A DNA stretch of 62,152 bases from positions 1-62,152 of the IMG/VR virus record IMGVR_UViG_3300035684_000004; one strand, 5' to 3'. A model generated the notes under the pieces. That model worked only from the letters and a program-made list of their open reading frames with translations, was not told the origin of the DNA and ran no database searches. A program made the translations under genes and the position numbers. Source of the stretch: a virus. Within the stretch, counting starts at the first letter, position 1; every line of letters begins with the position of its first letter. Shown here piece by piece: positions 7,334-52,660 of this stretch.

Positions 7334-10300
7334 TCAGGACACCCCCTTCGTCGGCGAGTACGTGCGCCCGCCGGACGACGCCGACGGGACGTCCGAGAGG
7401 CGCCCGACGACGACCTTCTCGATGTTGTACGTCTGGCTGTTGTCGGTGCTCGACCGCGACGCCACGGGGATCGGGACCGGCACGAGCCGGGGCCCGGCCA
7501 TGTTCAGCACGGAGCTGATGGGGCGGCCATCGGGTGACCCGCCGTCCCAGAACTTCGGCAGCGTCCGCGTCCGCACGGCCTCCATGAACGGCATGCCGTA
7601 GTAGTCAACGGACGCCGTCGGTTGCACGAACTCGCGTCGGGTGACGAGCACGGGGACCTGGTCGCGGCCGAACGCCCCCCAGTCGATCGGGCCGCCCTCG
7701 GCACGGGGCTTCTGGAACTTCGAGCCGCTGGCGTTGCCCGCGGTCGGCGCCGCCCGACCCTTCGCGTTCACGTACACCGGCCGGTTGTCGAGCTCGGACT
7801 GGATCGCCGTCGAGATGTCGATGCCGAACGCGGCCGCGATGCGCTTGATCTCCCCGGCGGGCAGCTTCAAGCTGCGCACCAGGGCGTCCATCGTGGCCTT
7901 GCCGCCGGCGGCGGCCTCCGCCGCGGCGATCGCCATCGCGGACTTGAGGTCCTTCGTGTACTGGTCGGTCGGCGCGTTCATGGCGATCGCCGCGATTCGG
8001 GCCTGCTCGGCCACGAACCCCGACAGGTTGGCGATCTGCGTCTCCGACTCGTTCACCATCTTGATCAGGTTCCCGGAGTGGTCGGCCAGGAGCCGCTGCA
8101 GCACCGGCTCCGCCCGCTCCGGGCCCTGCGCGAGCAGCTTCGCCACGACCGTCGGGTCCAGGCCTCGCTGGATCGCGCCGTTGATGTCGCGGATGAACGA
8201 CTTCGACAGGTCGATGGAGCGGCGGTACCGGCGCTCGAGCGTGTTGTTCGCCTGCTCGGCGCGCGCCTCCGCGAGCCGCTGCTCCGCGGCCTCCACCGCG
8301 CTGGACCGGCCCGTGCCGCCCGACCCGCGCGCGGCGATGAGCGCCTCGTCGTCCTTGAGCCGCTGCCGGGCCCGGTTCAGGGACTGCTGCTGCGACAGCC
8401 ACGACTTGTAGCTCTTGGTCCGGCCGGCGTGCATGAGGGCTTCCTTGTCGGCGATCGACTGCCGGTCCCTTGCCAGCCGCTGCTCGTCCCGCAGCGACGT
8501 CGTCCCGCCGCTGGTCGACTCCCGCCGCGCCTTCGCCAGCGCCGCCTGCGCGTCGGCGACCTTCTTCGCGTCACCGGTCGGGTCGTACTTCCCGAGCACG
8601 TCGGTGTCCCGCTCGAACGCCGTCTTCGCGGCCTTCACCACCCCCGAGATGGCCTCCTCGAGCTTCTCCATCGCCTCGATGTCGAGCTGCGCGTTCGCCG
8701 CGATCGACGCGGCCGTCGCGGCGTCCTCGTTCTTGAGGTCCTTCACGTAGCCGATGAGCCGGCGCCGGGCGTCAGCGCTCGAGTCAAACGTCCCCGACAG
8801 GTCGATGTTCGCGCGCTGCGCGAGCACGCCGAGCGCCTGGTTCGACAGGCCCGTCTCCAACGCGACCTCGGTCAGGTTGGCCTGCGTGTTCTCCAGCTTC
8901 GCGTTCAGCTCGGTGTAGGCCTTCGCGGCGGCTTCGCCCTCGGCGGCGACCTTCCCGACCTGGCCGTCGCCGAACACCTCGCTCGCGCCGGCCTTGAGGG
9001 TGCCCAGGACCCCCTCGTACTGCTTCCCCACCTCGACGGTGTGCTCCATCGTCTTCCGGAGCCCGTCGAGCTGCGCCCGGGCGGCCTTCGTGTCGTAGGC
9101 GTTGAACGACGCCCGGACCTTGTCGGCGTTCGCCTTCGCCTGATCCTGCGCGTCGTTCCACTGAGAGAACCCGCGGATCACCAGGAAGATCGCGGCGGCG
9201 AGGCCCGCGGTCATCGCGATCGACGCCGCGCCGGCGGCGGTCGCGAACCGGGCCGTGGCGGCGGCGGCGCCGTTCGTCGCGACGACGTACGCGGCGGTCG
9301 TCACAGTCAGGTACGCCGTCCGGGCGGCCTGCACCGTCGCGGCGGCCCCGGCAGCGACGAGCCCGGGGATGAGCCGGGCGAGGTACACCGCGGCGACCAG
9401 CTCGACGATCTCGACGTGGTCGGCGAGGAACTCGGTCAGCGCCCGGAGCACGTTCAGCATCGCCAGCAGGGGCCCGACGACCGCGACGCCGGCGATCGCA
9501 GCGAGGGCGCCCGCCACCGGGGCGGCGTCCTGCGCGAGCTGCACGAGGATGCTGGCCAGGTTCCCGGCCGTCGCCCACACCTGCTCGAACACCGGCGCCA
9601 CGGTGTGCAGCGCGGCGTTCAGGTACGGCAGGACGTCCCCGCCGGCCTCCCGGGCGGCGCCGAGGAACGCGTTCAGCGGCGGCAGGACCTTGAGACCGAC
9701 GGCGATCCCGGCGGCCTCCGCCGAGTTCCGGAACAGCGTCAGCTGCGCCTGCGTGGACTTCATCTGCTCGTTGAACGCGCGCTGCGTCGCGCCGGTCCGC
9801 TTGCTCGAGTCGGCGATCCCGTCGACCGCGGCCTGGTAGTTCGCGCCGTCCGCCGACAGCAGCGCTAGCACACCCCGCGCGGCCCGGACGTCGTCGAACA
9901 TCCGCACGAGCTGCTCGCTGGACCCGCCGGTGACCCGGCCGATGTCCTGGATGACGGCCTGCAGGCCCTTCTGCTTCAGCGCGCTCGCACCGGACTCGTA
10001 CCCGAGGGCCTTGTAGACCTTGGTGAGTTCCTCGGTCGGCTTGATGAGCTTGGTCAGCAGCTGGTTCGTCGCGGTCGCGGCTTCCGGTGCCTGGATGCCG
10101 GCCAGGGTGATCGCTGCGTACGCCGCGCCGACGTCCTGCAGCGGGACCTTCGCGGCCGCCGCGATCCCGACGAAGTCACCGAGGTTCTGTGCAAGGTCGT
10201 GGAACGTCACCACGCCCTTGTTGACCACCTGGAACAGGACGTCGCTCACGTCGCCGGCAGAGGCGGCCGAGAGGCCGTACGCGTTCAGTGCCGCGGTGAT

Positions 10301-10765
10301 GGCCCGCGCCGACGTGTCCGTGTCGGTCAGGCCCGCGCTAGCAGCTTTCGCCGAGACCTCCAGCACGTGGAACGCCTCGGCTCCGGCGAAGTTCGACGAA
10401 ATGATCTCGTAGAGCCCGTTCGCGAGGGTCGTCGCGGCCTGGGGCACCGTCTTCGCCAGCTCGAGGACCTGCTCGCTGGCGCCGGCGAAGTTGGTGCGGA
10501 CCTCGTCGCTGATCGTCGACACGTTCCGCATCGACGCCTCGAACGGCACCGCCGCGGCGGCGGCGACGCCGAGCGCCGTGGCGATCGCGGCGCCCCCGAG
10601 CACGACGCCCTTGGTGACGTTCGACCCGAGGATGGAGCCGAACCGGCCGCCCTGCTTCTCGGCGTTCGCGGCGAACCGGTCGATCTGCACGGTCGCCTGG
10701 TTCAGGGCGCGGGCGAGTCCGGTGCCGTCCCCGAGGACGTAGACGGTGACCGTGCGCACACCCAT
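7334..10765 (-). CDS. Tape measure protein
   Basis: 1143 aa, the largest ORF. Ala/Gly-rich helical sequence with hydrophobic central segments. Follows the major-tail and chaperone genes. GAGGAG precedes ATG 10765. Confidence 0.9.
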   Translation of the reverse strand: MGVRTVTVYVLGDGTGLARALNQATVQIDRFAANAEKQGGRFGSILGSNVTKGVVLGGAAIATALGVAAAAAVPFEASMRNVSTISDEVRTNFAGASEQVLELAKTVPQAATTLANGLYEIISSNFAGAEAFHVLEVSAKAASAGLTDTDTSARAITAALNAYGLSAASAGDVSDVLFQVVNKGVVTFHDLAQNLGDFVGIAAAAKVPLQDVGAAYAAITLAGIQAPEAATATNQLLTKLIKPTEELTKVYKALGYESGASALKQKGLQAVIQDIGRVTGGSSEQLVRMFDDVRAARGVLALLSADGANYQAAVDGIADSSKRTGATQRAFNEQMKSTQAQLTLFRNSAEAAGIAVGLKVLPPLNAFLGAAREAGGDVLPYLNAALHTVAPVFEQVWATAGNLASILVQLAQDAAPVAGALAAIAGVAVVGPLLAMLNVLRALTEFLADHVEIVELVAAVYLARLIPGLVAAGAAATVQAARTAYLTVTTAAYVVATNGAAAATARFATAAGAASIAMTAGLAAAIFLVIRGFSQWNDAQDQAKANADKVRASFNAYDTKAARAQLDGLRKTMEHTVEVGKQYEGVLGTLKAGASEVFGDGQVGKVAAEGEAAAKAYTELNAKLENTQANLTEVALETGLSNQALGVLAQRANIDLSGTFDSSADARRRLIGYVKDLKNEDAATAASIAANAQLDIEAMEKLEEAISGVVKAAKTAFERDTDVLGKYDPTGDAKKVADAQAALAKARRESTSGGTTSLRDEQRLARDRQSIADKEALMHAGRTKSYKSWLSQQQSLNRARQRLKDDEALIAARGSGGTGRSSAVEAAEQRLAEARAEQANNTLERRYRRSIDLSKSFIRDINGAIQRGLDPTVVAKLLAQGPERAEPVLQRLLADHSGNLIKMVNESETQIANLSGFVAEQARIAAIAMNAPTDQYTKDLKSAMAIAAAEAAAGGKATMDALVRSLKLPAGEIKRIAAAFGIDISTAIQSELDNRPVYVNAKGRAAPTAGNASGSKFQKPRAEGGPIDWGAFGRDQVPVLVTRREFVQPTASVDYYGMPFMEAVRTRTLPKFWDGGSPDGRPISSVLNMAGPRLVPVPIPVASRSSTDNSQTYNIEKVVVGRLSDVPSASSGGRTYSPTKGVS

Positions 10766-23673: not shown

Positions 23674-24738
23674 TCAGCCGATCGTCGCGATGGTGAGCTG
23701 CCGCGGGTCGTCGAGGATCGGCATCCCGCACCCGGACACCTTCGTCCAGGACGTGATCGGGTCCTCGGAGAACCAGGTGCCGCCGATCAGGCCGGGCGCC
23801 GTCTCCCGCGTGAGCGCGCCCGTCCGGATCAGCTGGAACGAGTCGCGGGTCACGCCGAGCTGCGTCTCCCCGAGGCCGTCGGCGACCATGACGAGCTTGC
23901 CCGCGGGGATCAGCGGGACGTCGGTGCCGAGGTAGTTCGTGATCGCGTGCTCGACGACCACGAGCTGCGGCAGGCCCCGCTGGGCGCGGACCTGGTTGAC
24001 CTCGTCGATCGACAGGTCCGGCACGTTCGTCAGCGACGCCGCGCCGGCGTACCGCACCGTCTTGTACTGGGTCGTCTTCCCGAGCGCCTGCGCCATCGCG
24101 AGCCGCGTGTACGCCTTCCTCGGCCGCTTGAAGCCGAGCTGGGTCATCGCGAGGACCCACGCCTCCTCGTCGGCGATCGGCGTCGACGACGCGGCGTTCG
24201 TCCACAGCGGCGACGCCGTCGGCTTCTGCCCCGAGCCAATCGCGTAGTCCGTCTCGGCGAACAGGTTGTTCTCGCCGGCCAGGGTGAACTTGCCGGTCGT
24301 GAGGAGCTGCGCCTTCGCCAGCGCCAGCCGCAGCTTGATCGAGTCGGTCTGGTTCCGGAGGTCGTCGAACGCCTCGTTCACCAGCGCCGCGTCGTACGCC
24401 GGCGTCGTCCCGTTCTGGTTCAGGAACATCAGCTCCAGGAACTCCGACTCGCGCAGCGGGAGCTTCTGGCTGATCGGGGGCAGCTCGACTTCCTGCTCCG
24501 TCGCCTTGAGGTTGCGGCGGCCGAGCGGGGACTCCGAGTCCCACGTGCGGTACACCGCGGCGTACGACCGGCGCGTGACCGTGCCGAACCGCGCCTTGTT
24601 CGTCGCGACCCGCCGGTCGGGCAGGACGTTGAGGAAGTCCAGCACGCCAGGGTCGTCCCCGTACGGGTCCGGGAGCTCCCGGACGAAGATCGTGGCCTCG
24701 ACCGGGTCCACGAGGTTCCACGGGCTGAGAGTCGGCAT
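23674..24738 (-). CDS. Major capsid protein (lambda gpE-like family)
   Basis: 354 aa. Its size, and its position after the scaffold and decoration genes, match lambda gpE. The sequence style matches Phage_cap_E. Confidence 0.85.
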   Translation of the reverse strand: MPTLSPWNLVDPVEATIFVRELPDPYGDDPGVLDFLNVLPDRRVATNKARFGTVTRRSYAAVYRTWDSESPLGRRNLKATEQEVELPPISQKLPLRESEFLELMFLNQNGTTPAYDAALVNEAFDDLRNQTDSIKLRLALAKAQLLTTGKFTLAGENNLFAETDYAIGSGQKPTASPLWTNAASSTPIADEEAWVLAMTQLGFKRPRKAYTRLAMAQALGKTTQYKTVRYAGAASLTNVPDLSIDEVNQVRAQRGLPQLVVVEHAITNYLGTDVPLIPAGKLVMVADGLGETQLGVTRDSFQLIRTGALTRETAPGLIGGTWFSEDPITSWTKVSGCGMPILDDPRQLTIATIG

Positions 24739-29133: not shown

Positions 29134-29345
29134 TCAGCGGCCGAGGCGCGGGTTCCTCCGGGCGTCCGGGTGCCCGATGTGCCACGCGCGCTTCAAGCTG
29201 TCGTCCCTGCACTCCGTGTGCACTGGTACACGTTCATCGACTTCGCACCCATCCGTTGCCGGTACGCGATCGCGCCGGCCACCGCGGCCTCGCGCGACCA
29301 GTACGGCTTCTTCGCGCACCCCCGGTCCCGTCGCCGCTTCTTCAC
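29134..29345 (-). pseudogene. Small zinc-finger-type ORF interrupted by a -1 frame change near 29215
   Basis: Frame a (GTG 29345, GTGA overlap with the TerL stop) reads VKKRRRDRGCAKKPYWSREAAVAGAIAYRQRMGAKSMNVYQC, then stops. Frame b continues ECRDDSLKRAWHIGHPD to 29134. Confidence 0.45.
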
Positions 29346-30880
29346 CGCGTCCTCCCCCCACCCGACCACCGCTGCGACGACGGCCCGGTCGGGCGCCGCT
29401 CCTGCGACTTCTTCGACCGGTTCGCGGGGAACATCAGCCACCGCAACGCGTGCACCATCGCGTCGACCCGGTCCGGGGACGGCTCGTCCTTGTCGCCCGT
29501 CCACGTCGTCGCCTCGTCCTCGAGCTCCTCGAGCGGGTTCAGGATCGCGCCCGGCTGCGCCAGCGGATGCGAGCTGTCGGGCACGAGCCGGCCCGTGCCG
29601 TCGTCCACCATCGGGATCACCGGCAGGACGTGGTGCACGCGCGGGGGCTTCTGCTCGTACAGCAGCGCGATGGTCTGCGCGCGCAGCCACTTCGACTGGT
29701 TCGGCCCCGACGGAGTCACCCGCACGATCGGCGGCCGCGCGGGCGCGGGGTTCCCGATCCTGCGCTGGTGCTCCACGATCCGGATCCACGCGGCCTTGAG
29801 GATCGACTCGACCATCTCGCCGCCCACGTTGTCCTCGACGATGACGACGTCGACGTCCTGGTCGATGGCCTCCTGCCAGACGACTTCCGCCCACTCCTCC
29901 GGGGTGTACCGCCCGGACAGGTCGTTCAGGACGTACGCGTGGACGTCGCCGTCGAGGCCCACGGTGATGATCCCGGTGAGGTCGGAGACCTCCCCGGACG
30001 TCTTCGCGGGGTCCACGCCGATCGCCTTCACCTGCAGCCGCGGGACGGCGTCCGACCGGAGCCGGCCGTCGTCGATCCACGCCTGCTGCAGCATCGCGCC
30101 CTCGACGTCGGTGAGCAGCTCCCCGTGCAGCTCCTGCCGGCCCAGGCGGGTGCCCTCGTACCGGGCCTGCAGCACCGCCACCGCCGCCGGCGACAGGTTC
30201 GCGAGGTTGTCCGCGGTGTGCCCCCGCGTGACGTGCACCCGCATCCCCTCGGGGCCGTTCACCAGGTCCCGGACGTGCGGCAGGTTCTTCGGGGTCGTCG
30301 TGACGATGACGCGGGGGTCGGTGGCTTCGCGGAGGCAGAACCACAGCTGGTCGAACATGTCCTGCGCGACCTTCCGCGGCCACGCCGCGTACTCGTCGCA
30401 CCAGGCGCCGTCGAACGCGTACCCGCGGATCGCGTCGGGGTCCTCGGCGGAGAACGCCCGGATCATCGTGCCGTCGTCGAGGGTGATGAGCAGCGCCGGG
30501 CTCTTCTTGTAGCTGAACGTGCCGGGCTCGAACACGGCGAGCAGGCCAGCGGACCGGGCCTCGTAGCAGATGGCCTGCACCTCGCGGTGCGTCTTCGCGA
30601 TCACCGCGTAGTGCCCCGGGCCGAGGCCCGCGGCCTGCCGGGCACGGGACCACTTCTTGACCGTCTCCGCGCCGGTGCGGGTCTTCCCCCACCCCCGCCC
30701 GGCGATGATCGCCCACACGTCGTACGGCTCGGCCGGCTCGAGCTGGTCGGGCCGGGCGTGACGCTCCCAGTCGTACTCGCGGCGCTTCAGCTCAGCGATC
30801 AGCGCCCGGGACCGCCGGTACAGCTCGCGGTCGGTGAGGAGCTCGGGTGGCCGCCACGTCGGCGGCCGGTACGTCGTCAC
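29342..30880 (-). CDS. terL: Terminase large subunit
   Basis: 512 aa from GTG 30880. Walker A in AIIAGRGWGKTRTG. The C-terminal nuclease-type region includes IITVGLDGD and VIVEDN. Confidence 0.92.
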   Translation of the reverse strand: MTTYRPPTWRPPELLTDRELYRRSRALIAELKRREYDWERHARPDQLEPAEPYDVWAIIAGRGWGKTRTGAETVKKWSRARQAAGLGPGHYAVIAKTHREVQAICYEARSAGLLAVFEPGTFSYKKSPALLITLDDGTMIRAFSAEDPDAIRGYAFDGAWCDEYAAWPRKVAQDMFDQLWFCLREATDPRVIVTTTPKNLPHVRDLVNGPEGMRVHVTRGHTADNLANLSPAAVAVLQARYEGTRLGRQELHGELLTDVEGAMLQQAWIDDGRLRSDAVPRLQVKAIGVDPAKTSGEVSDLTGIITVGLDGDVHAYVLNDLSGRYTPEEWAEVVWQEAIDQDVDVVIVEDNVGGEMVESILKAAWIRIVEHQRRIGNPAPARPPIVRVTPSGPNQSKWLRAQTIALLYEQKPPRVHHVLPVIPMVDDGTGRLVPDSSHPLAQPGAILNPLEELEDEATTWTGDKDEPSPDRVDAMVHALRWLMFPANRSKKSQERRPTGPSSQRWSGGGRTR

Positions 30881-31044
30881 CAGAGCCACCGGTCCGGGGG
30901 CGCGTCGCGCCGGGACCCGGCCGAGCACGGCGGCCCACCCGCCTGCAGGTAGATCCCGGCGTCGCTCAGCATCCGTCGGCAGGTGCGGCAGTGCTTGAGC
31001 TGCCACCACCGCAGCCGGCGGCCGCACCACTCGCAGCGCTTCAT
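30877..31044 (-). CDS. Small zinc-ribbon ORF (55 aa)
   Basis: ATG 31044 overlaps the RHH stop (ATGA), and its TGA overlaps the TerL GTG. Peptide MKRCEWCGRRLRWWQLKHCRTCRRML (CxxC...CxxC). Below the ORF-track cut-off. Confidence 0.45.
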   Translation of the reverse strand: MKRCEWCGRRLRWWQLKHCRTCRRMLSDAGIYLQAGGPPCSAGSRRDAPPDRWLW

Positions 31045-31250
31045 GAGGGCCGCACCGGGTGGCGCTCGGCGTACTCCCGCAGCGCGGCCTTGATGACCTC
31101 GTGCCGGGTCGTTCCGAGCGCAGCCGCTCGCCGGTCGAGGTAGTCGACACCCGGGCGCCGTACGTCGATCTGCAGGGTCACGACCTCCTCCTCCGGGTTG
31201 CGCTGCTTGCGTGGTCTGCCTGACGGGCGGCCGGTCGGGCGGTAGGGCAT
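31041..31250 (-). CDS. Ribbon-helix-helix (CopG/Arc-like) DNA-binding protein
   Basis: 69 aa. TLQIDVRRPGVDYLDRRAAALGTTRHEVIKAALREY fits a beta strand followed by two helices. Confidence 0.6.
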   Translation of the reverse strand: MPYRPTGRPSGRPRKQRNPEEEVVTLQIDVRRPGVDYLDRRAAALGTTRHEVIKAALREYAERHPVRPS

Positions 31251-37676: not shown

Positions 37677-37698
37677 GCTCGCTCCTCCGCTGAGCTGT

Positions 37699-37718
37699 CC
37701 CGCACCGGCCGGTGCGGG
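37699..37718 (-). terminator. Perfect 20-nt palindrome CCCGCACCGGCCGGTGCGGG
   Basis: Read directly. Lies between tRNA-like element 1 and the next RBS. Confidence 0.5.
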
Positions 37719-37722
37719 ATCG

Positions 37723-37779
37723 TAGGCCGCCGGGACTCGAACCCGGGTGCTGCTGACGCCCAGCGCGCCGCGCGGCCCT
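37723..37779 (-). ncRNA. tRNA-like element 1: acceptor-like stem closing a canonical T-arm, no D or anticodon arm
   Basis: Minus strand reads AGGGCCG-25 nt-CCGGG UUCGAGU CCCGG-CGGCCUA. The closing stem has 5 Watson-Crick pairs plus one G-U pair. Starts 7 nt after the stop of 37786..38088. Confidence 0.4.
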
Positions 37780-37785
37780 GGCCGA

Positions 37786-38088
37786 TCAGGAGTCGAGCTG
37801 CTGCCAGCCGCGCGGCGCACGCTGCGGGTCGGTGTCCCCGAGCTCGTCGGCCACTTCCGGCGCGACGTAGAGCAGGTTCACGCCGTGGTGGGTCAGCAGG
37901 TGCAGCGACACCGTCCGGTTGAACGTGACGAGACGGTGGCTGATCGCCCGACCGCTGATGCGCAGTGCGTCTTCGAGGGTCCAGTTGTTCGGACCGCGGG
38001 TGCCGATCCCGCGGCCTTGATTCGCCTTGTCGGTGGCGGTCAGGATGCGCGCCGCCTCGTCCGGGGTGATGTCGCGCTTGGTGCTCAC
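37786..38088 (-). CDS. Hypothetical protein (100 aa)
   Basis: GTG 38088 with CAGCGGAGG upstream. Confidence 0.65.
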   Translation of the reverse strand: MSTKRDITPDEAARILTATDKANQGRGIGTRGPNNWTLEDALRISGRAISHRLVTFNRTVSLHLLTHHGVNLLYVAPEVADELGDTDPQRAPRGWQQLDS

Positions 38089-38152
38089 GAGGACCTCCGC
38101 TGTCCTCCGGGTGGCTCCCGCCGGTTGGTAGGGAGCGCTTCTTGTTGTTCTC

Positions 38153-38194
38153 AGTCTAGTACCCGTACCAGTGCGTGTACAGGTGAACGGCACA
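38153..38194 (-). promoter_or_regulatory. Promoter P4: TGTGCC-N7-TGTACA(-35), 17-nt spacer, -10 TAGACT
   Basis: Minus-strand reading cCTGTGCCgttcaccTGTACAcgcactggtacgggtacTAGACT. Confidence 0.6.
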
Positions 38195-38215
38195 GGAGGC
38201 GCACGTTCTCGCAGG

Positions 38216-38434
38216 TCAGAACGGGGGCGCCGACAGCCGCTCGACCTCGCCCTTCAGGTGCTCGAACCCGCTCACCAGCGCCAACGCCGGCCCACCTGCC
38301 ATCACCAGCTCGCCGTCCACGTTCACGGTGGCGGCGAACCCCAGCCGCGTCAGCGCGCTCGCCGCGGCCCGCGCCATCCCCTTCTCGTCTGCCAGGTCCG
38401 GAGCGACCAGCCCTGGCTGCACGTGCGCGGTCAT
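38216..38434 (-). CDS. Hypothetical protein (72 aa)
   Basis: ATG 38434 overlaps the upstream stop (ATGA). Confidence 0.55.
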   Translation of the reverse strand: MTAHVQPGLVAPDLADEKGMARAAASALTRLGFAATVNVDGELVMAGGPALALVSGFEHLKGEVERLSAPPF

Positions 38435-38586
38435 GCCGCAACCGTCACGATCAGCTGCGAGCCGGCCGCCGTCAGCCAGAACGCCGTCGACGCCGCGGGC
38501 AGGAACCCGATCCGCTCGTACGTCCTGACCGTCGCCCAGGTCACGCTCGAGAACACCGCGAGCGTCACCGCGATCACGAACCACAT
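38431..38586 (-). CDS. Small two-helix membrane protein (51 aa)
   Basis: ATG 38586 with CAGCGGAGG upstream. Peptide MWFVIAVTLAVFSSVTW...AFWLTAAGSQLIVTV. Confidence 0.6.
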   Translation of the reverse strand: MWFVIAVTLAVFSSVTWATVRTYERIGFLPAASTAFWLTAAGSQLIVTVAA

Positions 38587-38633
38587 GGAGGCCTCCGCTG
38601 CCTCTCGTGCACCACCCTCGCGGCGGTGCTGAG

Positions 38634-38679
38634 CGCCCGGGGCGGGACTCGAACCCGCCGACGTGCTCCTGACCCGGGC
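38634..38679 (-). ncRNA. tRNA-like element 2: perfect 7-bp acceptor stem + canonical T-arm minihelix
   Basis: Minus strand reads GCCCGGG-UCAGGAGCACGUCG-GCGGG UUCGAGU CCCGC-CCCGGGC-G. Begins 8 nt after the stop of 38688..39005. Confidence 0.45.
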
Positions 38680-38687
38680 GGCCTTGC

Positions 38688-39005
38688 TCAGGCCGGGTAG
38701 AGGCAGAGCGCGTACCCGGCGTAGGGCTCCGCGAAGACGCCGATCGTGGCGAACTCGTCCAGCAGCTCCCAGCTCGCCTCGATCGCCCAGTCGTACGGTC
38801 CGCCCTCGAGCAGCACCGTGGGCGTCGGGCCGGCGCTCGGCCAGTCCCACGCGGGGTTCAGCATCGGACCCTCGGCCCGGTAGGCGGCCTGCTCGCCGGT
38901 GGGCGCCGGCCCGTCGTAGCCCATCTTCGGGCCGAGCCAGGTCGCGACCAGCGCGAGCGCCTTGTCCTTCTGGTCCTTGGTCAGCTTCTTGGTCGTGGTG
39001 CTCAT
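38688..39005 (-). CDS. Hypothetical protein (105 aa)
   Basis: ATG 39005 with CAGCGGAGG upstream. Confidence 0.65.
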   Translation of the reverse strand: MSTTTKKLTKDQKDKALALVATWLGPKMGYDGPAPTGEQAAYRAEGPMLNPAWDWPSAGPTPTVLLEGGPYDWAIEASWELLDEFATIGVFAEPYAGYALCLYPA

Positions 39006-39052
39006 GTCCGCCTCCGCTGCGGTCGTGGTGGGTGCTGCTTGATCTACTTCAA

Positions 39053-39081
39053 ACACTAGTAGACGTACTAGTGGCGTGCCA
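39053..39081 (-). promoter_or_regulatory. Promoter P6: -35 TGGCAC, 17-nt spacer, -10 TAGTGT
   Basis: Minus-strand reading cTGGCACgccactagtacgtctacTAGTGT. Confidence 0.5.
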
Positions 39082-43180: not shown

Positions 43181-45700
43181 TCACGCGGTCAGCGCCTCCA
43201 CGTCACGCAGCGCAGCGTCGTCGCGCGCCTCGTCGAGCTCGTCGCCGTCCTCGTCGGCGGGGTCGTAGTCGTCCGGGATGACGAGCGGCTCGTCGAGGAC
43301 GTGCTCGCTGATCGCCCACTCGCCGCGGGCGAGCTGCCGCGCGGTCGCTGGCCGGCCCGGGCGGGTCTTCGTGTGCGCCTCGAGCCGCGGGTACAGCGCC
43401 GGGCGGACGTCCTCGCCGGGGAAGTCGAGCCACAGCGCGACGAGCGTCTCCGTGCTGACCCGCACCCACCGGGTCCCGTCGGGGCCGGCCTGCACCTCGC
43501 CGGGCGGCACGCGCTCGCCGTCCGAGAGCTTGACGTGCTGGGCCGGGTCCGTTTCGGTGAACAGCCGGCGCACCATCGCCTGGAAGTTCGCGGCGCGCTG
43601 CTGCGGGGACGGCCGCGGGCCGGACGCCGGCAGGGACCAGTCGACGGCCGGGTCGTCGTCGCCGTCCTGCGGGCCGTCGACCTGCGCGACGAACCGCTCG
43701 ACGGGGATCCGCGGGTCGGGCGTCTCGTCGGGGTCCGGGCCGAGCTCGTGGGTCACCTCGGCGTCGATCTCGTCGTCCAGCAGGTCGCTCTCGAGCGCGA
43801 CCTGCTGGCGCATGTGCTCGCTCATCGTGTCGTCGTCCTCCTCCAGCTCGGCGAGCGCCAGGTCAGGCGCCGCCTCGGTCTCTTCGTCGGGGTGCACGGG
43901 CTCCTCCTGCTGCGCCGGCGGCCCGGCCGGGGTCGGCGGTGTCGGGGTCGGCGGGGTTGGCTTCGGGGCCTGCTCGATCCACTTCCTGACGGCCGGGTCG
44001 CGCAGCTGCGGCACCTTGCCGTACTTCGACGACAGCCACGTCCCGACGGTGACGACGTCGCGGCGGGCGTACGACGCGCGGCGCGTCGCGGCGCCCGCGA
44101 ACACCTCGGCGGTGGCCTGGTCGAGCTCGTGCCACTCCGGGTGCTTGACCATCCACTCGGCGACCGTGGCGGCGAGCAGCAGCCGGTCGGGGCGCTCGGT
44201 GCGGCGCTTCATCGGCCACCGGTTCTTCTTCTCACCCGCGAGCTCGGCGTAGTGCAGGCCCGGCTGCTCCATCGGGTCGAAGGTCCACGGCTCGGCGCCG
44301 GCGTCGAGGGTGTCCTCGGACAGCGCCATCCGGGCGTCCTCAGGCTTGTCGCACGCGAACGCCATCGACTCAGGAACGAGGTTCCGGAAGTCGGTCGACA
44401 CGTTCTCCTCCGACGGCCGCTGCAGCTCGGTGACGACCTTGAAGCCGGCGGAGCGCCACACCTCGACGCCCCGGGCCCACTCCTCCTCGAACGGGCCCAT
44501 CAGCGGCGCGGCCTCCGCGAACCAAGCCAGGACGAACGGGATCCCGAACTCGGTCCAGCACCGCGGCGTCCACCGGTCCTCGCCGGTGAGGTCGGTGATG
44601 AGCTGCGTCCGCACCGGCACCGCGGCGGCCAGCGCACGGAGCTGCGCCTCGGCTCCCTCCGGCGTGGACTCGAACCAGTGCAGGAACGGCCGGACGAACG
44701 GCACCCACTGCCCGGCCTTGCGGGTGTCGGACGCGATGACAACGATGCCCTGCCGGGCGACGAGCTCGCCGAGCAGGTTCACCTGGAACGCGGTCTTCGC
44801 CGCGCCGCTCTTCCCGGACGAGATCAGCGACGGGGAGCCGACGAAGTCGTCGGTCGGGGTCATCGACCAGCGCGACTCCTTGCGGTCCGCGGTCCACCCG
44901 ACCCGGATCGGCTCCCACACGCCGGCGCCCGCCCGGACCGGGCCCTTCCAGTCGGGCACGTTGTCGAGGTACGCGCTGCGCGAGATGACGAGCTTGGTGC
45001 GGTGCGCGAGCGTCCGGCCGGCCTCGAGCACGGGGTCGATCCGCACGGACCCGGACGGCAGCTTCGCCTTGGCCTCGATCCGCTGCTTCGCGCGGACCAG
45101 GTCCTCGCGGGTGTTCTCGGTGTGCTCGACGAGCACGTGCCGCTCGCCGTTCTTGTCCTCGGCCTTCACCGGGCGGGTGCTGTCGGCGAGGCCGACGGCG
45201 CGCTGCCAGGCGCCGTCCTCGTCGCCGTGGTGGTCCGTGCCGTCGCCGCGGTGCACGGGGTACTGCACGACGACGTGCCACAGCGCGATCAGGCACCCGG
45301 TCGGCAACACGAGCACGATGTGCCAGAACGGCACCGCTCCGATCAGGGTGGTGACCGACCAGACGGCAGCGAGCCACCCGATGGACAGGGCGAGCCGGCG
45401 CCGGTTCCACGGGTTCCGGGACTGCGAGGACCTCCACAGCGCCACGGTGAGCGCGGCGCCGCACGCGCCGAGCATGAACGTCAGGTGCGGGACGTAGTCG
45501 AAGCGGACGGCGAGCGCGTGCCAGCCGAGGCCGAGCAGCGGGACGACGAGCACGAACACCACGAACGGCAGGACCGCGGTGTCCCAGCCGCCCTTAACGA
45601 CGTCGAACAGGCCGCCCTGCCCGCGCCGCCACTGCTGCGGCGCGGGCTGCGCGGTCGGCTTCGGCTTCGCGGTCGTGCGCGGCCGGGTCCTGCTCGCCAC
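43181..45700 (-). CDS. Membrane-anchored FtsK/SpoIIIE/TraB-like ATPase candidate
   Basis: 839 aa. About four N-terminal TM helices. P-loop-like LISSGKSGAAKT, and a Walker-B-like FVLAWFAEAA. The C-terminus is acidic with an RPATARQLARGEW helix. GGAGG precedes GTG 45700. Confidence 0.6.
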   Translation of the reverse strand: MASRTRPRTTAKPKPTAQPAPQQWRRGQGGLFDVVKGGWDTAVLPFVVFVLVVPLLGLGWHALAVRFDYVPHLTFMLGACGAALTVALWRSSQSRNPWNRRRLALSIGWLAAVWSVTTLIGAVPFWHIVLVLPTGCLIALWHVVVQYPVHRGDGTDHHGDEDGAWQRAVGLADSTRPVKAEDKNGERHVLVEHTENTREDLVRAKQRIEAKAKLPSGSVRIDPVLEAGRTLAHRTKLVISRSAYLDNVPDWKGPVRAGAGVWEPIRVGWTADRKESRWSMTPTDDFVGSPSLISSGKSGAAKTAFQVNLLGELVARQGIVVIASDTRKAGQWVPFVRPFLHWFESTPEGAEAQLRALAAAVPVRTQLITDLTGEDRWTPRCWTEFGIPFVLAWFAEAAPLMGPFEEEWARGVEVWRSAGFKVVTELQRPSEENVSTDFRNLVPESMAFACDKPEDARMALSEDTLDAGAEPWTFDPMEQPGLHYAELAGEKKNRWPMKRRTERPDRLLLAATVAEWMVKHPEWHELDQATAEVFAGAATRRASYARRDVVTVGTWLSSKYGKVPQLRDPAVRKWIEQAPKPTPPTPTPPTPAGPPAQQEEPVHPDEETEAAPDLALAELEEDDDTMSEHMRQQVALESDLLDDEIDAEVTHELGPDPDETPDPRIPVERFVAQVDGPQDGDDDPAVDWSLPASGPRPSPQQRAANFQAMVRRLFTETDPAQHVKLSDGERVPPGEVQAGPDGTRWVRVSTETLVALWLDFPGEDVRPALYPRLEAHTKTRPGRPATARQLARGEWAISEHVLDEPLVIPDDYDPADEDGDELDEARDDAALRDVEALTA

Positions 45701-49680: not shown

Positions 49681-49795
49681 GGGGGCCTCCTCCGCTGAGA
49701 CGGCGTCGCCCCCGGGGGCAGTCGGCCAGGAACCTTGCGGAGGAACCGACATGACCACACCCGGGGGCGACAGGGGCCGGTCCCGGGGGACCGAG

Positions 49796-49867
49796 AGCGG
49801 GAGGCAGGGATCGAACCTGCCCCTCCCCCCTGGAAGGGGGGCGCGCCACCTTCGGCGCTTCTCCCGC
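49796..49867 (-). tRNA. tRNA-Gly (anticodon UCC)
   Basis: Hand-folded cloverleaf: GCGGGAG AA GCGC CGAAGGTG GCGC G CCCCC CTTCCAG GGGGG AGGG GCAGG TTCGATC CCTGC CTCCCGC T. All stems are Watson-Crick, U33 and A37 are present, and no CCA is encoded. Confidence 0.9.
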
Positions 49868-49870
49868 GTG

Positions 49871-49904
49871 GTCGCCCACCCGCACGGGGGTTCGGGTGGG
49901 CGAC
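49871..49904 (-). terminator. 12-bp hairpin immediately 5' of the tRNA
   Basis: GTCGCCCACCCG / CGGGTGGGCGAC arms read directly. Confidence 0.5.
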
Positions 49905-52577: not shown

Positions 52578-52660
52578 GGCTCCGCTCCTTGGGTGGGGTG
52601 TGGTGCTACTAGTAATGGTACCAGTGGGGGTCGGTGGGGGCCCGCGTGACGGCCGGGTGG

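Follow-up and report, generated by a model that had tools for sequence, protein, structure and literature searches.

tRNA-like acceptor/T-arm minihelices between early genes of an uncultured siphovirus: putative processing signals for host tRNA-end enzymes

Relation to described tRNA-like elements

The t-elements of plant mitochondria, first described in wheat mitochondrial DNA, are sequences defined by the motif GGTTCRANYCC that direct cuts by RNase P and RNase Z and thereby form mRNA ends; a released t-element can gain an untemplated C or CCA (Forner et al. 2007, PMC1920247). Two elements resembling these, named E1 and E2, were identified in IMG/VR virus record IMGVR_UViG_3300035684_000004, the 62,152 nucleotides (nt) of which are referred to as the window. 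This window is a siphovirus-type phage genome remote from every cultured phage. In each element the acceptor stem of a transfer RNA (tRNA) is placed on a T-arm, shortly after the stop codon of a small early gene. It is very probable that E1, E2 and their counterparts in related contigs form a family of real, conserved, structured RNA elements. A probability of roughly 0.5 is given to the reading that they are processing signals for host tRNA-end enzymes, predicted to punctuate or insulate the early phage mRNAs.

Both systems have non-canonical tRNA-like folds with a conserved GGTTCRANYCC T-arm, located within mRNA precursors (predicted ones for the phage) beside coding regions. Counting the copies in related contigs, the motif occurs as GGTTCGAGTCC or GGTTCGACTCC in seven of ten elements and as GGTTCGAGTCT in that of contig L005, while two copies read GGTGCGA. 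The t-elements differ in belonging to an organelle and not to a phage or bacterium, and the two groups are not homologous in sequence. At 45-67 nt the phage elements are smaller; they often lack the middle arm and carry a fixed downstream hairpin and ribosome-binding module; the t-elements mark mapped RNase P/RNase Z mRNA ends, whereas processing of the phage elements is predicted only. Genes for terminase, capsid, tape-measure and tail-tube proteins mark the window as a phage genome, and the relation to t-elements is one of analogy only, not of common descent.

As functional analogues, the t-elements are the closest and mascRNA the other close one. Like the phage elements, mascRNA and the MEN-beta product, from the 3' ends of MALAT1 and NEAT1, do not decode and combine an acceptor stem and T-arm with a middle arm that is reduced. 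Cleavage by RNase P makes the 3' end of the upstream RNA there, followed by RNase Z cleavage and CCA addition. They are products of vertebrate nuclear long non-coding RNAs (lncRNAs); the phage lacks the upstream triple-helix stabiliser. The mascRNA-menRNA model RF01684 was the only tRNA-type Rfam model to align the elements end to end, with scores (E1, 20.8 bits; L004, 23.2 bits; L002a, 17.6 bits) so far under its gathering score of 42.5 that they are not members. At permissive E-values, Rfam gave only sub-threshold matches to mascRNA-menRNA and to the T-arm of tmRNA.

Animal mitochondrial tRNA punctuation and operon-embedded tRNAs are similar in that excision of a tRNA-shaped unit parts the neighbouring cistrons. 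The window's own tRNA-Gly, located between two open reading frames (ORFs), has the same flanking-hairpin layout. The units in those systems decode, whereas E1 and E2 have no anticodon arm and are rejected by ARAGORN and Rfam. Among viruses, the 3' tRNA-like structures of plant viruses and the TMER units of gammaherpesvirus MHV68 are tRNA mimics handled by host tRNA enzymes (RNase P, RNase Z, CCA-adding enzyme). They belong to eukaryotic RNA and DNA viruses, being full L-shape mimics or RNA polymerase III units, and serve other roles (aminoacylation, microRNA release). Bacterial Y RNA (YrlA) was considered and rejected: no TROVE (Ro60) match was obtained among 40 proteins scanned with Pfam (the large ones and those of genes around the elements, with PHROGs applied to ten of these as well, and only part of the small ORFs included), and no Rfam Y-RNA match at E-values up to 10. 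Searches of the literature on tRNA-like elements in phages and actinophages returned generic mentions and no report of such phage elements. The type of mechanism is known elsewhere, while its occurrence in a phage and its minimal form appear to be new. If the elements are indeed cut by RNase P and RNase Z, they would make up the first non-decoding tRNA-like punctuation family in a bacteriophage, as far as literature searches show.

Structure, rarity and covariation of the elements

In E2 a linker of 14 nt connects a perfect 7-base-pair (bp) acceptor stem with a canonical T-arm (coordinates in Table 1); its 3' tail is GCUC. E2 scores 35.5 bits with covariance model R1, and its perfect acceptor stem has a chance probability of about 0.017. 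E1 has an acceptor stem of 6 bp (five Watson-Crick pairs and one G-U pair), a T-arm, a 26-nt linker with a weak middle hairpin and the 3' tail ACGA. Its score with R1 is 23 bits, and its closing stem is non-significant when taken alone (P about 0.25). The case for E1 leans mainly on the T-arm and on orthologues at the same position. These anatomies largely bear out an earlier note on this DNA, which had described the perfect 7-bp stem on a canonical T-arm in E2 and, in E1, the T-arm and the closing stem; only the E1 linker, given there as 25 nt, was wrong. The same note had correctly stated that the elements start 7-8 nt after a stop codon (8 nt for E2 and 7 nt for E1), that both lie upstream of CAGCGGAGG and a start codon, and that a genuine tRNA-Gly lies on their strand.

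A structural scan of both strands (5-bp stem, TTCRANY loop, adjoining acceptor strand with an upstream partner) returned exactly three loci in the window: tRNA-Gly, E1 and E2. Dinucleotide shuffles (n = 300) contained a mean of 0.19 such T-arm/acceptor loci, with two or more in 3 of the 300, and covariance model R1, run with filters off, gave no further candidate in the window. A third exact GGTTCGAGTCC (44666-44676), lying without stems inside the FtsK-like ORF, was dismissed as a chance occurrence. ARAGORN, proposed in the earlier note as a check, did not recognise E1 or E2 as tRNAs: with this program and at Rfam gathering thresholds, tRNA-Gly(TCC) is the sole tRNA of the window. The elements lack a cloverleaf with D-arm and 7-nt-loop anticodon arm, the linkers being 10-14 nt long or made of one hairpin whose loop has 4-6 nt. 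E2 and most of the other copies do have a tRNA top half (7-bp acceptor on a 5-bp T-stem, G53-C61, T-loop U54-U55-C56-R57-A58 and discriminator).

Relatives (metagenomic contigs L002-L006, L042 and L043) were fetched through seven close homologues, 59-68% identical, of the DUF932 protein encoded downstream of E1. Contigs L002-L006, whose DUF932 proteins are 60-68% identical to that of the window, are syntenic with it and carry eight more elements (L002a, L002b, L002c, L003a, L003b, L004, L005 and L006b) in matching intergenic slots. Positional orthologues of E1 lie upstream of the DUF932 gene in L002-L006. ARAGORN called none of the eight elements and found no tRNA in L002-L005. The acceptor strands vary and are paired in every variant: GCCCGGG/CCCGGGC, GCCGGGA/UCCCGGC, GGCCGGG/CCCGGCC, GGACCGG/CCGGUCC and GGGCCG/CGGCCU. 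E2 and its positional orthologue L002b are identical at 42 of 45 positions; their only two substitutions form one compensated T-stem pair (GCGGG/CCCGC versus GCCGG/CCGGC), and the short linker, TCAGGAGCA(C)GTCG, is kept, while the surrounding intergenic DNA is far more diverged. The genes flanking the E2/L002b and L002a/L003a copies are unrelated on one or both sides. In L004 (152-220), GGACCGG has two possible partners, one inside the middle hairpin and the other being the 3' acceptor strand, so that this copy may have an alternative fold; the orthologous acceptor, GGGUCG/CGGUCC, would hold the pairs G3-U70 and U4-G69. An alanine-type G3-U70 identity pair was rejected as a feature of the family, being present only in that one alternative pairing.

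The ten elements were aligned under register control with linker interiors trimmed (alignment A4). Pair positions are paired in 94.2% of cases, against 66% in shuffles, and 9 of 12 pairs have changed on both sides. None of 500 shuffles reached the observed covariation score, and sliding the partner strand by one column reduced pairing to 56-66%. RNAalifold, given untrimmed sequences and no guidance, returned acceptor and T-arm for the short type and acceptor, middle hairpin and T-arm for the E1 type. All ten elements agree in the G53-C61 closing pair, U54, C56, G57, A58, the 7-nt loop and C74, and nine have G1-C72. The discriminator is always a purine (A in eight, G in two, E1 being counted with A37723). 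Acceptor and T-stem together make 11-12 stacked layers. CCA is encoded in none of the ten, nor in the phage tRNA-Gly genes. All ten copies are in sense orientation, and each of the three wobble pairs in them (two G-U and one U-G) would turn into an A-C mismatch if the opposite strand were read, which indicates coding-strand RNA. A GG conserved in the linkers was also considered as a mimic of G18-G19 and rejected, being not significant at this composition.

The elements are embedded in a modular order. It begins with a promoter of sigma-70-like type (TGGACA-like, 17 nt, TAGNCT), which has a palindromic core and stands ahead of one or two small genes. The minihelix and its discriminator come next and then, after 2-5 nt, a stable hairpin; a small hairpin that displays a CAGCGGAGG ribosome-binding site in its loop leads to the next gene. 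In all copies the minihelix starts 5-15 nt past the upstream stop codon, and in all ten a hairpin begins 2-5 nt past the discriminator. The genes upstream are non-homologous between genomes (105 amino acids (aa) versus 109, 101 and 58 aa; 100 aa versus 82, 76 and 80 aa). Those downstream remain of the same kind: E2-type elements are followed by a gene for a small membrane protein and E1-type elements by the DUF932 gene.

Predicted processing and alternative explanations

Bacterial RNase P, RNase Z and CCA-adding enzyme all act on acceptor/T-arm minihelices, and the features kept in the family (G53-C61, the T-loop and the acceptor stack) are those that these enzymes read on minihelices. Because the elements are kept in relatives with compensating base changes, cut sites for host tRNA enzymes are the most likely explanation. 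E1 and E2 would be transcribed within early polycistronic mRNAs of this uncultured siphovirus of a high-GC host. Each would fold into a coaxial acceptor/T-arm stack capped by a canonical T-loop, to which the E1 type would add a middle hairpin. Host tRNA-end enzymes would recognise the stack: RNase P is predicted to cut at the 5' end of the acceptor, 5-15 nt past the upstream stop codon, and RNase Z after the discriminator, no CCA being encoded. The freed 45-70-nt RNA may then be tagged by CCA-adding enzyme. The variable promoter-proximal gene would be separated from the conserved downstream genes, and the new downstream mRNA would begin 2-5 nt ahead of a stable hairpin protecting its 5' end. 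With the upstream gene separated and the downstream mRNA so protected, the elements would act as RNA punctuation or insulators. The punctuating or stabilising role put forward in the earlier note fits all that was computed and is partly supported, the mechanism being one that we infer; with the relatives included, the case for it is far stronger than a single genome had made it.

If true, this would extend to phage operons a mechanism of plant mitochondria, archaea and vertebrate lncRNAs. It would also explain an exchangeable gene slot behind the early promoter together with constant expression of the conserved genes, and offer processing tags of natural origin and very small size (45 nt) with which polycistronic constructs could be equipped in high-GC Actinobacteria. 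As tRNA finders and Rfam thresholds miss them, similar elements may be common and unannotated in other phages.

Several observations weigh against processing signals. The folding energies are no better than those of shuffled sequence (z = -0.4 and +0.4), which is unexceptional at 73% GC, where z-scores are uninformative, and the acceptor stem of E1 is broken in the minimum-free-energy fold of its 111-nt context. The 5' acceptor strands were partly picked by complementarity, which inflates acceptor pairing counts, and, taken one by one, the acceptor stems of E1, L003a, L005, L003b and L006b fall short of significance (P = 0.25-0.86); most weight is carried by the five perfect 7-bp stems and the T-stems. 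Position 55 of the T-loop is G, not U, in L003b and L006b. The high identity of E2/L002b and of L002a/L003a could reflect recombination instead of selection. At the E1 slot of L042, a slightly more distant relative (DUF932 59% identical; 316-378), the hairpin and the CAGCGGAGG ribosome-binding module are kept without the minihelix, so that the element is dispensable at this slot.

The family is moreover known from six genomes only, scans of larger collections having given no further member. DUF932-anchored protein scans of IMG/VR and JGI metagenome contigs gave no further loci, and no minihelix was found at loci with homologues of the 105-aa protein (L011-L024, from genomes and IMG/VR), among which L014 has ordinary tRNAs. 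Pattern scans for a T-arm followed by CAGCGGAGG returned only real tRNAs, tmRNA and chance matches; a 66-nt E2 query returned only T-arms of real tRNAs and chance matches, and a search for homologues of the 72-aa protein retrieved nothing but the query. No such element was found in more distant DUF932 phages (L007-L010 and Rhodococcus phage Shagrat, L053). A weak look-alike, scoring 18 bits with R1, was observed in one of these (L009, 11052-11100) directly after the DUF932 stop codon, with the sequence GCCCCCG ... CCCG UCCGAGU CGGG C CGGGGGC. An unrelated viral contig (L050, 4745-4900) holds two tandem T-arm-like units and a possible 7-bp acceptor, GGACGAG/CUCGUCC, about 88 nt apart; ARAGORN made no call on these units, which may be an odd or permuted tRNA-like gene.

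It is rather unlikely that the elements are remnants of phage tRNA genes without D- and anticodon arms, persisting as cassette-recombination junctions with no function at the RNA level. The 24 nt comprising the T-arm and 3' acceptor strand of E2 recur unchanged in genuine tRNA-Leu(TAA/CAA) genes of IMG/VR contigs, and this identity suggests that E2 descended from a tRNA gene by internal deletion; a tRNA-gene origin is likely, at least for E2. Unrelated genes beside near-identical copies are what would be expected at recombination junctions, and the absence from L042 is also consistent with remnants. Such junctions need identity, however, and not pairing, and here both stems stay paired across the copies through double changes that compensate each other. 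Linkers and flanks have drifted while the T-loop positions critical in tRNAs have not varied, every copy has the sense orientation, and the hairpin spacing is conserved. A decayed tRNA gene, one of the alternatives of the earlier note, is largely excluded by pairing that is kept across relatives with non-homologous flanking genes.

Another unlikely explanation is that the product matters and not the cut. Freed, probably CCA-tagged minihelices would bind or titrate a tRNA-recognising factor, for which a host defence toxin modifying tRNA 3' ends and a tRNA-modifying or -processing enzyme are candidates. The structural evidence is the same as for processing signals, the short linkers are kept between the orthologues E2 and L002b, and RNAs placed just after strong early promoters would be abundant. 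No partner protein was evident in the window in the Pfam and PHROGs scans, however, and the free variation of acceptor sequences among copies speaks against a sequence-specific target. L042 does without the element, and this explanation needs the same predicted processing and one step more.

That the elements are structured RNAs acting without tRNA enzymes, as terminators or attenuators lacking a U-tract, 3' stabilisers or a binding site for a phage protein, is distinctly unlikely. Their position 5-15 nt past stop codons and their GC-rich stems at the end of promoter-proximal genes would suit such a role, and actinobacterial terminators are often without U-tracts. A plain terminator would have no reason for a 7-nt UUCGANY loop, for G53-C61 or for a two-helix stack of 11-12 layers; no terminator-like site was scored at the elements, and other intergenic hairpins of the window (e.g. 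40240-40211) are ordinary. An intrinsic terminator with GC-rich hairpin and U-tract was rejected on the same scan at E1 and E2.

More speculative, and improbable, is the idea that excised, CCA-tagged minihelices serve as early decoy 'tRNA tops' soaking up host toxins that attack the 3' acceptor ends of tRNAs, which would amount to a phage counter-defence made of RNA; a milder variant would see in them natural RNA insulators that let the phage swap accessory genes behind an early promoter while expression downstream stays undisturbed. CapRel/toxSAS pyrophosphokinases and MenT/AbiEii nucleotidyltransferases, common in Actinobacteria, are candidate targets of such a decoy.

Integrating elements leave tRNA-gene fragments as attachment sites (attP, attL and attR) (PMC9897764). 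These resemble E2 in comprising the T-arm and 3' acceptor strand of a tRNA, the E2 24-mer being identical to tRNA-Leu; they differ in being one contiguous 3' piece without the 5' strand, beside an integrase and matching a host gene. Eight further IMG/VR contigs (L025, L028, L030, L032, L034, L035, L037 and L040) carry the 24-mer without a tRNA call. Their tRNA-Leu(TAA) fragments run contiguously from the anticodon loop to the 3' end, without the 5' strand, and are typical att-site relics. The match of E2 to tRNA-Leu ends before the variable and anticodon arms, and the 14-nt linker joins the T-arm straight to the 5' acceptor strand. The earlier note had associated attP cores with identity to the 3' half of a host tRNA and a position flanking prophage copies; no host-flanked copy of the lineage was seen. 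Although the 3' part of E2 equals the 3' end of tRNA-Leu genes, it is highly improbable that E1 and E2 represent attP cores or the traces of an integration event in a host tRNA gene, an alternative largely excluded because no integrase or recombinase family was found among the 40 scanned proteins, the 5' acceptor strand is present, two or three differing copies occur per genome, the stems covary between relatives (impossible for a core obliged to match the host), the tRNA-Leu match of E2 does not extend into the variable or anticodon arm, and the relatives' contigs are phage-like, without host flanks.

Genomic setting of the elements

Table 1. Features of the window in and around the tRNA-like elements, with structural genes
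Feature	Position	Strand	Basis or remark
E2 minihelix	38635..38679	minus	sequence; structure recovered by minimum-free-energy fold
E2 acceptor 5' strand GCCCGGG	38679-38673	minus	sequence
E2 linker, 14 nt	38672-38659	minus	sequence
E2 T-arm GCGGG TTCGAGT CCCGC	38658-38642	minus	loop TTCGAGT
E2 acceptor 3' strand CCCGGGC	38641-38635	minus	sequence
E2 discriminator G; C74	38634; 38633	minus	sequence
E1, three-arm tRNA-like element	37723..37779	minus	sequence; fold; R1
E1 acceptor 5' strand GGGCCG	37778-37773	minus	pairs with CGGCCU
E1 T-arm CCGGG TTCGAGT CCCGG	37746-37730	minus	sequence
E1 acceptor 3' strand CGGCCT	37729-37724	minus	sequence
E1 discriminator A, then C	37723	minus	sequence
Hairpin 1 after E2, 8 bp	38609..38629	minus	fold; 5 nt past discriminator
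Hairpin 1 after E1, TCCCGCACC GGCC GGTGCGGGA, 9 bp	37698..37719	minus	fold; 4 nt past A37723
CAGCGGAGG ribosome-binding motif in small hairpin loop	38592..38600	minus	51-aa membrane-protein gene 38586-38431
CAGCGGAGG ribosome-binding motif	37684..37692	minus	DUF932 gene 37676-36450
105-aa gene, promoter-proximal	38688..39005	minus	ends 8 nt before E2
100-aa gene, promoter-proximal	37786..38088	minus	ends 7 nt before E1
Promoter-like site TGGCAC-17-TAGTGT, palindromic core ACTAGTAC..TACTAGT	39053..39081	minus	E2 operon (predicted)
Promoter-like site TGTACA-17-TAGACT	38153..38181	minus	E1 operon (predicted)
tRNA-Gly(TCC), no encoded CCA	49796..49867	minus	ARAGORN, Rfam
12-bp hairpin ending 3 nt before tRNA-Gly 5' end	49904-49871	minus	
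Hairpin starting 3 nt past tRNA-Gly discriminator	49792 onward	minus	
Terminase	29342-31150	minus	Pfam + PHROGs
Major capsid	23674-24738	minus	Pfam + PHROGs
Tape-measure protein	7334-10765	minus	Pfam + PHROGs

The window has a G+C content of 72.6%, with all genes on the minus strand, and its host is taken as high-GC (73%). Besides the structural genes of Table 1, Pfam and PHROGs identified a scaffold, a tail tube and a peptidoglycan-binding tail/lysis protein; the early region codes for ParB-like, FtsK-like, DAM-like/GNAT-like and DUF932 proteins. DNA similarity searches in near and distant modes against 50,697 GenBank phages left the region unmatched, and the terminase reaches at most 38% identity. 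A Logan assembly contains the same sequence as the window.

Promoter sites homologous to that of the E2 operon were identified in L002, L003 and L006. A motif, GTACNNNTACTAG, common to these three contigs is present in the window in 11 copies, against 0.21 expected. Sense sites lie at 39053-39081, 38153-38181 and about 52590-52625, and sites on the plus strand at 1297, 47337, 55155, 61410 and 61440. The sense copies read as a sigma-70-like promoter overlapping the palindrome ACTAGTAC..GTACTAGT, which is probably an operator. The stretch between early promoter and minihelix is a slot for accessory genes that is hypervariable among otherwise syntenic relatives and has conserved non-coding modules on either side (window, 38688-39005 and 37786-38088; L002, 4038-4769; L003, 1245-1421).

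The motif CAGCGGAGG precedes 14 start codons on the minus strand; counted over both strands it has 16 copies, where 1.8 would be expected. Its usual place is the loop of a small hairpin, with further sites at, for example, 39011-39019 and 49689-49697. In the relatives, the stable upstream hairpin often displays a second, decoy AGCGGAGG in its loop, and this hairpin could be a ribosome standby site.

The downstream-hairpin layout is common to the E1/E2 family and the phage's real tRNA-Gly. In the window, tRNA-Gly(TCC) is located between two ORFs and bracketed by strong hairpins 3 nt from each end (49753-49904). The tRNA-Gly(GCC) of L006 has the same bracket, the downstream hairpins of both starting 2-3 nt past the discriminator and the upstream ones (12-15 bp) lying 3 nt away.

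The 105-aa protein encoded upstream of E2 has more than 100 homologues, including proteins encoded on chromosomes of Pseudactinotalea, Cellulosimicrobium, Cellulomonas and Tersicoccus. As homologues sit in those chromosomes, they hint at a Micrococcales-type host range for the gene pool of this protein.

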